A DNA stretch of 64,000 nucleotides. Source: Escherichia coli. GTDB lineage: Bacteria > Pseudomonadota > Gammaproteobacteria > Enterobacterales > Enterobacteriaceae. A program made the position numbers. Positions 26,501-29,500 of the stretch are shown piece by piece (within the stretch, counting starts at the first letter, position 1; each line of letters starts with the position of its first letter). The stretch lies in the NCBI RefSeq assembly GCF_030013205.1, contig NZ_CP122648.1. The stretch is one strand, 5' to 3'.

Positions 26501-29500
26501 CTGCTGCGCTTTCTGGTTACCGGGCATCACTTTATGCGCCGATGTGGTTTTATCCTGCTCCTGCGCCGCCTGCGTCGTTTTCTGCGGCGTGCCGTAAATG
26601 CCTTTAGGTTTTCTGTTAATGGTCAGCTTAGTCATGCTTTGCCCCATCGTTTTTACTGATTGCTACGTTGCCCAACGGCACTGACACAACATTCTGTTTT
26701 CATTTTTAACATTCCTAATTTTTTAATTCCTCACCTGCTGCACAGTGAAAATTTATGAAGTTAATAACAATATGATTTTAAATGTATTTTTAAGTACTCA
26801 CTTTTTAATCCTTATATATACGCAAAAGTGAGGTAAATAGTTAAGTTTTAGTTAATATCTTGCATGGTGTGTTTTTTAACCTACCTGTTATTTTTATTAC
26901 CTCATTTCTATTAACTCACCATTCCTCACTTTTGTTCCTCACTTTTTGTTATTCCCGTCCTGCTCCTCACCTGTTTTTCTTGTTGTTGTAATGTCTTGTT
27001 TTACAATATGTTTTTCATTCCTCACTTTTTGACCTATATACAGGTGAGAAAGTGAGGAGTGGCGTTGATTTTTTGTTAAATTACCCGCCATCCTCACTTT
27101 TGCTCCTCACTTTTTACAGTGGGCGCACATAATCACCGTCAATAGCGATTACGCCGTCGCTTTCCAGCTTGTACAGCCAGCGCCGGAAGTTTTTCATTTC
27201 ATACCCCAGCTTTTTCATATCATCGCGGAGAAGGGCGATAGTGCACGCCTCCCCGTGTGCTGTTCGCGTTCTGATGCACTGCCATAGCGCAGCGTGATTT
27301 TCCGTCTTGTTCCCGGCCTCCTCGATGCGTTCCAGTTCAACAGGTGGGCGCGGCTTATCCACAACCACCAGCGACGTGATTAACTCCCCGTCAGTGTCGG
27401 TAAAAAGCTCCACCACGCGTAAATCATATGCAGCCTCTTTCAGTTCCTCCGCGTCCTTCATTTTGGTGCAGGAGATAACCAGGGCTTCACTGTCCGCACC
27501 TTCACGGCGAATACGGTATTCAGCGTCCAGAGATGCACGAAATGCACTGGAACCACGCGCCCCTTTTGTTTCATCCTTGCCGGAATGGTGAACCACCAGT
27601 ACCGTGGCCCCCGTGCGTCGTTTCAGTTCGTCACATCCACGGATAAACGCCCCCATATCCCGCGCGTCATTTTCATCATTACCGCCAAAGCAACGCGCCA
27701 GCGTATCCAGAATAATCATGCGTACCGGTTTACCCGTTTCCCGTTCAACCTGACGGGAAGCGATGACCATTTCATCAACATCAAGCGGGACCGCCGGAAA
27801 AATCGGGCGGTTTACCAGGTACAGATTTTTCACCCGTTCATCATTAACGATTTCCCATGCTTTGATACGACGAGGGACACCAATGCCACCTTCACCGACG
27901 ACATACATCACCGAACCATGCGCCACCCTGCGGCCTCCCCAGTGGCGACCCGTGGCAACATGACACGCCCAGGAACACGCGAGGAACGATTTATAGGAAC
28001 CGCTCGCGCCGTATGTGCTGCACAATGAATTAGCCGGAATCACGCCCTTAACGACATAATCAAGCTGTGTGTCGTACCCTGCAGATCCAATACTCATTGG
28101 TAGTGTGGTTTTTCGCTGGTCGTTTTTTTCTTCCTCTGGTATCTCTCCGGACAGTCTTTTCTGGCGCTCTCGTTCCAGATATTCGCGCCACTCCTCGCGT
28201 TTCTGGCTGTGCATTCCCTCGGGGTAATAATTCGCATCCCGTACACCTGCCGCCGCCAGCTTTTGCCCGATGGCGTTAATATTTGACGGCTTGATGTGGC
28301 CTGCCTTGTACAGCCGGACACAATAGCGACCATCGTCGATAATTTTCAGGTCTGCCAGTTCGTCAAGCTGGCTGTCTCCCAGCCATACAGGCGGCACGTT
28401 GTCGCCAGCAAGTCGCCCGTCCTGCTCCTGCCACTGTTTCGCGTGCGCCCAGGCATCACTACCCGCAAAAATAATGACTTCGGTCATTTTGTCGTGTGGC
28501 TGTTTTTTTAAGTTCGGTGCCAGTTTCATTTTGTGCCCCTGAATGCGTTAATCATGTTTTTCATTTTCTGAATATTTGCCCGTGCCTTTGCGTTGCTGGT
28601 GGGCTGTTTGCATGGCGTGGCCTGTATCAGTGAAAAATCACGCCGGAACTGATAAACAGGCATCACGCAGTCATATTCGTACCCATCACGGCGGTAAGTA
28701 ACGCACCGTCCCGCCACGCTTTTAATCGTTACAGTGCCGCCGTATTTATCTTTGAAAATATCGCCGGGGCGGATTTCAGGCCGAGAGAGACCGCTGGCAG
28801 TAAAGCCAGAATTTTTCTTTTTCATGGTTTTTTACTCCTGCGTCTTGCTCTGAATTACCTGATAACCGCAATCGGTCAGCAATTCGATAAATTCCGGCAA
28901 TGTGCCGAAACAGCAATTATCACGCATACGTTCGCGGGATACCTCAACGCCGTTTTCGTAGTGACTCACCATGCGTCCGGTAAAATGCAGATCATCATCG
29001 TGATGGCACGTTGACGGCTTAATCAGTCGCGCACGTTCTGCCAGCTCCAGCAATGCTTCAACACTTCCGGCAATTGCACCATCCGGCAGGCGATAATTAC
29101 TTACCACGCGTCCATTCTCCACATTGACCAGTAGCTGCCCGGTAAATTTCTCATCAAACTGAATGCTGTTAAGGTCAGAAATTGACAGGTTATGCATGGT
29201 GCACCTCCTGGCGAATACGGGCGGCGAATACCATCACGCAGCCATCAGGAGATTGCTGGCGTGCTTCCTGTTCGCTGGTGGCCTCGATGTGAATCACGCG
29301 CGGTTGTGCCGTACTCAGGGCGATAAAACGCCAGATAAAATTGTTTTCGCATTTCTGAATAAACAGCGTGTTTTCTTCGCGCCCTTTCCATGTTGCCGAG
29401 ATATAGCCCATGCCATTGAGCATCTCGCAGGCATCAACCAGCGTATCAGCGGCTACGTGTACAGTGTTTTTACCGTCAGCTATGCAATCACGGTGCACCG

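Follow-up and report, generated by a model that had tools for sequence, protein, structure and literature searches.

The 64,000-nucleotide stretch of the Escherichia coli contig NZ_CP122648.1 (assembly GCF_030013205.1) that was analysed here, referred to below as the window, carries at positions 26729-27115 a cluster of short repeats (iterons) behind a replication gene, rep. Very probably, this cluster serves as the origin (ori) of vegetative replication for a phage-inducible chromosomal island (PICI) of 13.2 kb located at tRNA-Pro/yejM, and would be bound by the helicase-initiator encoded directly upstream of it. An iteron-type origin directly downstream of the replication gene had been proposed in the initial annotation of the window, and this proposal is supported by the layout of the repeats, by the nature of Rep as a helicase with a winged helix, by the island context and by the covariation between the iterons and Rep. 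Binding, melting, self-loading of the helicase and replication are the activities that we infer for this element.

Organisation of the repeat cluster

The pentanucleotide CTCAC forms the core of the repeats and is found 12 times in 26729-27115, nine times on the + strand and three times on the - strand, which agrees with the earlier description of repeats in both orientations.

Starts 26730, 26797, 26915, 26925, 26938, 26966, 27021, 27093 and 27106 (+): CTCAC cores
Starts 26828, 27044 and 27052 (-): CTCAC cores

One degenerate extra copy of the core, CTCAT, lies at 26901. The initial annotation had counted at least twelve copies of CCTCAC(T/C)TTTT; the number holds for the core (n=12) but not for the full 11-mer CCTCACYTTTT, which has three exact matches. 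The consensus derived here is TCCTCACTTTT, present in the cluster in five exact copies and in three more with one mismatch, and a subclass, CTCACCTG, is represented by three copies (26730, 26966 and, on the - strand, 27044). CTCAC occurs 94 times on both strands of the window, and the densest 400-bp stretch, located at the cluster, holds 11 copies, as against four in the best stretch elsewhere. CTCACYT has 24 matches in the window compared with 9.6 +/- 3.3 in shuffled sequence, and 11 of the 24 fall within the cluster. When up to three mismatches are allowed, TCCTCACTTTT has 15 matches, whereas dinucleotide shuffles of the cluster region itself yield 3.5 +/- 1.7 (maximum 10); therefore T-richness alone is insufficient to explain the repeats. 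Two further elements of the earlier description hold: the DNA is AT-rich (G+C of 0.245-0.425 across the cluster and 0.52-0.63 in the flanks), and the iteron nearest to rep (27104-27114) shares a base with the TAA stop codon (27114-27116) of this 471-codon reading frame.

The cluster can be divided into a proximal module, next to rep, and a distal extension.

26915-27116 (about 200 bp): proximal origin module, common to all relatives
27091-27101 and 27104-27114: two tandem iterons of the proximal module, at the rep stop
27019-27058: palindromic core, an iteron (+) followed by TTTTTGACCTATATACAG and two inverted iterons (-)
26975-27018: AT-rich spacer between the proximal iteron sets, 72-78% A+T in a 40-nucleotide scan
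26913-26974: four direct iterons beyond the AT-rich spacer
26690-26914 (225 bp): distal origin extension, 70-85% A+T
26728-26738 (+): iteron of distal pair A, whose inverted partner, at about 26745-26749, is degenerate
26795-26834: second palindromic core, CTCAC-T5-AATCCTTATATATACGC-A4-GTGAG

In PICIs the origin is located immediately 3' of rep and comprises an AT-rich region with a set of iterons on either side (Fillol-Salom et al. 2018, PMC6092414). In the window the array begins on the rep stop codon, immediately 3' of the gene, and the iteron sets 26913-26974 and 27019-27114 flank the AT-rich segment 26975-27018, which is a candidate unwinding element. The inverted repeat at 27019-27058 is 83% complementary, and its position is kept in the relatives while the iteron variant within it is swapped; this palindromic core is a candidate site of head-to-head Rep assembly and melting. 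A search of 26636-27116 gave no DnaA box (with up to one mismatch), no integration host factor (IHF) consensus and no GATC.

Other features that could have been encoded in the same DNA were also considered. No Rfam family scored above threshold in 26000-27600, and a known RNA on the palindrome was rejected, as the palindrome matched only eukaryotic miRNA-hairpin models at 28 bits against gathering scores of 60-76. RefSeq places a 50-residue hypothetical protein (WP_001372362.1, 26939-27091, -) wholly inside the iteron array. Six relatives have no open reading frame at the corresponding position, and the annotated frame is therefore probably no gene and the call probably spurious.

The Rep protein and its covariation with the iterons

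The gene that precedes the cluster encodes a protein of 471 residues, in which the following parts are distinguished.

27114-28529 (-): rep, initiator-helicase of 471 residues (open reading frame; 'helicase RepA family protein' in RefSeq)
Residues 1-137: N-terminal domain of Rep
Residues 153-320, window 27570-28073: RecA-fold ATPase domain of Rep (Pfam AAA_25, E=1.1e-43)
Residues about 400-471, window 27117-27332: C-terminal winged helix of Rep, from the predicted structure
27189-27191 (-): codon for N447, a residue in the motif K-N-F-R-R-W of the predicted recognition helix of Rep (helix 3, first turn)

AAA_25 is the only Pfam domain detected in Rep. A profile of 64 Rep homologues matches RepA, the hexameric replicative helicase of plasmid RSF1010 (1g8y), at E=2e-11; the profile was needed for this, as a search of the structure database with the single sequence reached 1g8y weakly (E=0.004). 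An AlphaFold2 model of residues 138-471 has a mean confidence (pLDDT) of 89 and superposes on 1g8y with a template-modelling (TM) score of 0.74 in Foldseek, and RecA/Rad51 cores superpose on it too. Past the motor the model consists of three helices and a β-hairpin in the order H-H-H-b-b. When the last 84 residues are modelled by themselves (pLDDT 82), the structure retrieves winged-helix DNA-binding domains only, namely histone H1, DtxR/IdeR, IclR, Fur, ArsR and the MCM winged helix, with TM scores of 0.55-0.66 and E-values of 0.05-0.2. At the other end of the protein, residues 1-135 (28125-28529, -) are 63% identical to the N-terminus of Pri-Rep from the PICI EcCICFT073 (locus L006, 2241-2660), which continues past this part as D5_N/DUF5906/Pox_D5 of the D5/superfamily 3 (SF3) type and is there unrelated to the RecA-fold Rep of the window. 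Other relatives of Rep are without the N-terminal domain (about 350 residues), or have a different one (about 455 residues) or a zinc-finger primase (about 680-700 residues); the N-terminal domains are exchanged as modules.

The layout of the origin is shared by the relatives of this rep gene. Starting from the rep stop, two tandem iterons, a spacer, an inverted pair around TATATAC, an AT-rich stretch and three or four direct iterons follow each other in the loci L002-L005, L087-L090 and L092. A scan of one genome per species gave 80 loci, most of them from Enterobacterales and some from a few distant lineages. Most of the approximately 65 loci with an intact rep have an iteron array past the gene: in about two thirds, one 6-mer occurs 5-11 times in the 450 bp past the rep stop, whereas only 7% of 356 coding windows used as control reach five copies of their top 6-mer. 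The downstream repeats of the distant lineages are quite different words. The repeats trail rep whatever gene comes next, be it ssb, hypothetical genes, ProQ or capsid modules. Divergence is also unequally distributed within the arrays, amounting to 1.7% in the cores versus 12.5% in the spacers against L090, and to 15% versus 30% against L088.

The sequence of the iteron changes together with one residue of Rep. In L002 and L003 every iteron, in both orientations, is CCCCAC instead of CCTCAC, and the C-termini of their Rep proteins differ from that of the window at only four positions, N447H among them. Loci were sorted by the residue aligned to N447, between an invariant Lys and a nearly invariant Phe (K-x-F-x-R-W), and the cores were counted per locus.

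Rep-447 Asn, 19 loci: 6.9 CTCAC and 0.3 CCCAC per locus
Rep-447 His, 8 loci: 7.0 CCCAC and 1.4 CTCAC per locus
Rep-447 Ser, 5 loci: 5.6 CGCAC per locus
Rep-447 Lys, 27 loci: 4.4 CCCAC per locus

Within E. coli, the switch between Asn and His is seen on two different Rep backgrounds. In the last 75 residues, the Rep proteins of L089 and L090 differ at position 447 alone, and their arrays are built of CCCAC and CTCAC, respectively. Such covariation, together with the conservation of the cores, is what recognition of the repeats by the winged helix of Rep should produce, and it is from the covariation that the C-terminal winged helix is inferred to recognise the iterons. Neither a terminase site nor an operator of some other regulator would easily account for it.

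This bears on two other readings of the cluster. An array of operators or promoters through which AlpA, PerC or a host factor controls the late genes, unrelated to replication, would suit an AT-rich and repeat-rich intergenic stretch between two gene blocks of a unidirectional operon. It is nevertheless highly improbable, given that the repeats trail rep irrespective of the next gene, that the iteron variant tracks a residue of Rep, and that a scan of both strands of 26400-27400 found no sigma-70-like promoter; the promoter and terminator scan of the origin region gave no - strand terminator either. A packaging signal (pac or cos) recognised by terminase could be expected somewhere in an element of this kind, as PICIs carry such sites (PMC6092414) and a terS-like gene is located at 20783-21310. 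For the cluster itself this reading is barely credible: no phage record shows similarity to the DNA of the origin, and the repeats co-vary with Rep and not with the packaging modules, which differ widely among loci that share iterons.

Two of the relatives inform about the behaviour of such modules. L092 is the Klebsiella pneumoniae record pKp_Goe_795-4 (CP018459.1, 16,971 bp), deposited as a circular 'plasmid', which encodes an integrase, a capsid, a head-tail adaptor, a terminase and a Rep homologue 60% identical to that of the window, with GCCGCAC iterons in the same layout. From its gene content it looks like an excised capsid-forming PICI-like element and not a plasmid, and the circular record is consistent with such elements existing as circles. 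L089 (E. coli PapRG-04-4) has two iteron arrays in tandem at 2480-3710, in the order primase-type Pri-Rep, 11 copies of GGTAGA, a truncated 3' remnant of a RepA-type rep and a CCCAC array. Therefore, replicon modules are exchanged as rep-ori units, and the tandem arrays are a footprint of module replacement.

The distal module and the surrounding island

Most relatives have the proximal module of about 200 bp alone, and the similarity between L005 and the window (98%) ends at 26915. The distal module is present in 22 of 5426 complete E. coli genomes, and the sequence is identical in several enterotoxigenic E. coli (ETEC) genomes. Its palindromic core (26795-26834) resembles the proximal one (27019-27058) at a distance of 224 bp. 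In pair A the inverted arm reads GTGAA, as opposed to GTGAG in the relatives. In L087, whose Rep has His447, the distal iterons are CCCAC as well, and the distal module thus belongs to the Rep-binding system too. It may be read from its sequence as a second, duplicated Rep-binding core that serves either as an auxiliary initiation site or as a copy-control site. In L087, L088 and L090 a gene for a 257-residue hypothetical protein (1743-2516) separates the extended origin from ProQ/FinO; the window lacks this gene, so that here ProQ/FinO lies immediately next to the distal module.

Iteron plasmids employ extra iterons for copy control. With this precedent, a mainly regulatory role could be assigned to the whole array or, failing that, to its distal half (26690-26914), which would act in copy control or handcuffing or in Rep-dependent control of the ProQ/FinO-PerC-packaging genes. 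In the window, as in L087, L088 and L090, the distal module has its place directly upstream of the gene that comes next, and its rarity among the E. coli genomes indicates that most relatives dispense with it. We regard this reading as rather unlikely, since it is the proximal module alone that is universal, the distal module repeats the architecture of the proximal palindromic core, and the promoter scan described above was negative on both strands.

The cluster is located in an island of about 13.2 kb between 26-bp direct att repeats.

32854-32930: tRNA-Pro(GGG)
32710-32735: att repeat at the integrase end, adjoining tRNA-Pro(GGG)
31403-32644 (-): integrase, P4-type tyrosine recombinase of 413 residues (NCBIfam PRK09692, E=2.8e-168; PHROG 1)
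30697-30903 (-): AlpA-family regulator of 68 residues (Pfam Phage_AlpA, E=5.5e-8)
26105-26635 (-): ProQ/FinO-family protein, the next gene after the origin (NCBIfam FinO/ProQ; RefSeq)
20783-21310: terS-like helix-turn-helix gene
19552-19577: att repeat at the far end, CGTATAGCT[T/A]AACGTGTAGCTAAAAA

The published yejM att core has no exact match here; a variant with five mismatches and the true flanking repeat were located. Following the definition of a PICI as an element of 8-15 kb with an integrase and att repeats at a specific site, AlpA, unidirectional genes and no full set of phage genes, the island has a length of 13.2 kb, an integrase with att repeats, AlpA and genes that are all on the - strand, and its site, yejM, is listed among the PICI attachment sites (PMC6092414, Table S1). 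The gene order is int, alpA, an Icd-like gene with small genes, DUF4222, rep and the repeat cluster, after which ProQ/FinO, a PerC-family regulator, two phrog_6216/DUF2213 proteins, a 679-residue lytic-transglycosylase protein (phrog_7694, resembling tail-injection transglycosylases) and the terS-like protein follow. This cargo (20783-26635, -), which is without a capsid gene, is unusual for an E. coli PICI. The island EcCIATCC25922 shares the att site, the integrase family and the gene order from int to DUF4222. The window matches an E. coli chromosome, and a 601-bp query around the cluster is 100% identical to strain ETEC1749. Although the two sequences agree around the origin, the integrase and tRNA coordinates are offset by 210 bp from those of the ETEC1749 record; the source of the window is therefore a close relative in which the small genes between rep and alpA (28830-31400) contain an indel. 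A 500-codon open reading frame at 29190-30692, produced by mechanical listing, is not a gene.

The cluster could also be a real origin that is no longer functional, a fossil in a decaying island. The altered inverted iteron of pair A and the missing 257-residue gene would fit decay, and L089 is a case of truncation in a rep gene of this type. Against it, the island has both att repeats and undamaged rep, int and alpA genes, the 12 iteron cores are intact and the same sequence recurs in several ETEC genomes, so that we consider a fossil improbable.

Relation to known replicons and significance

The closest precedent by organisation is EcCICFT073, in which a pri-ori segment maintains a temperature-sensitive plasmid and both rep and ori are needed (PMC6092414). 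Its origin was located here at L006:3996-4283, with 11 copies of GGTAGA in both orientations. The two islands are of the same type, with the gene order int, alpA, icd-like, DUF4222, rep, ori and accessory or packaging genes, and in both the origin lies just 3' of rep and is made of about a dozen short iterons running both ways around AT-rich DNA. They differ in the motor, which is D5_N/DUF5906/Pox_D5 in EcCICFT073 and a RecA-fold AAA_25 domain of the RSF1010 RepA kind in the window, and in the unrelated C-terminal DNA-binding part, with GGTAGA iterons in the former and CTCAC iterons in the latter. The additional distal module also sets the window apart from the module of Gram-negative PICIs. 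The Rep proteins encoded by the pathogenicity islands (SaPIs) of Staphylococcus aureus are self-loading helicases whose C-terminal winged helix binds iterons of 5-6 nucleotides directly after rep (Qiao et al. 2022, PMC9371898), and their origins consist of 6-12 iterons, with an AT-rich region at the centre that has opposed iterons to either side (PMC9371898). The system of the window shares with them the C-terminal winged helix, the iterons directly past rep, the central AT-rich region and the opposed orientation of iterons and, by analogy, would also combine initiator and helicase in one protein. However, SaPI Reps are AAA+ proteins (SF3/MCM-like), whereas an AAA+ motor was not found in this Rep, which has a RecA fold closest to RSF1010 RepA; because of this difference the resemblance is one of analogy and not of motor homology. 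By that analogy, Rep would work like a SaPI or PICI Rep, yet it is not a member of the SaPI class.

With RSF1010 RepA (1g8y) the homology comprises the ATPase core and its RecA-fold P-loop. In IncQ plasmids the iterons are recognised by a separate protein, RepC, whereas in the window helicase and winged helix are parts of one fused protein, and the origin follows immediately after its gene. The alpha protein of phage P4 is a multifunctional primase, helicase and origin-binding protein that acts on short repeated octamers in two separated repeat clusters. P4 is likewise a satellite replicon, and the two palindromic cores found here recall its bipartite design, but alpha is of the SF3 type, the repeats are others, and ori and crr are kilobases apart; in the PHROG and Pfam results no sequence similarity was seen. 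Classical iteron plasmids (pSC101, R6K, RK2, P1) also have repeated initiator sites beside an AT-rich unwinding element. Their initiator is of the Rep_3 or RepA type with two winged helices (WH-WH) and is without helicase activity, their repeats are tandem and 17-22 nucleotides long, and they have DnaA boxes and, in many cases, IHF sites. In the window Pfam finds AAA_25 in place of Rep_3, the iterons are of 5-11 nucleotides in mixed orientation, DnaA boxes, IHF sites and GATC are lacking as described, and the helicase is self-supplied. Hence the earlier claim that this is the classic organisation of an initiator-bound origin must be divided: an initiator-bound origin is supported by location, anatomy, the adjacent gene and the comparative data, but the classic iteron-plasmid type is not, and an origin of the PICI/SaPI kind with a self-loading helicase fits instead.

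Several observations weigh against a functional origin read by Rep. First, the small C-terminal fold of Rep is matched with weak E-values (0.05-0.2), although such values are usual for so small a domain. Second, the P-loop of Rep (GASGSYKS, residues 174-181, window 27987-28010, -) is non-canonical, with Tyr where Walker A normally has Gly before Lys; as it is nearly invariant across the 64 homologues, it is a family trait and not a defect. Third, the loci used for the covariation are phylogenetically related, and the counts therefore overstate the number of independent events. Fourth, the validated replicon, EcCICFT073, differs both in its motor (D5/SF3) and in its iterons (GGTAGA), so that the transfer of function relies on a similar organisation and not on homology of the DNA-binding part.

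The following course of replication is proposed. After AlpA-driven induction the island would be excised, and the winged helix of Rep would read the iterons (CTCAC within TCCTCACTTTT), with N447 contacting their middle base. At the TATATAC palindrome and next to the AT-rich spacer, oligomers of Rep would form on the opposed iterons, melt the DNA and thread themselves on as the replicative helicase; the amplified island would then be packaged by a helper phage. We also suggest, more tentatively and short of an even chance, that the single residue 447 of Rep largely sets the origin specificity of the widespread RepA-helicase family (Asn for CTCAC, His or Lys for CCCAC, Ser for CGCAC), together with a bipartite, duplicated origin in this island that would have two palindromic Rep-loading cores.

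What does this origin tell about the satellites of E. coli? On the one hand, the arrangement is ordinary for PICIs, for which a replicon of their own is expected, and little is new in kind. On the other hand, the window holds a member not studied before, which combines a RecA-fold Rep with a CTCAC iteron and has a duplicated core that is unusual. The analysis identifies the island correctly where RefSeq shows scattered hypothetical genes, and it flags a probably spurious gene call inside the origin. The PICI origin design is seen to recur with non-homologous helicase motors. If residue 447 does set the specificity, co-resident satellites could escape cross-talk or incompatibility through one amino acid change and concerted turnover of the iterons. 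From the rule of one residue and one base, the incompatibility groups of the many PICIs in a genome could then be predicted, and orthogonal satellite replicons could be engineered.

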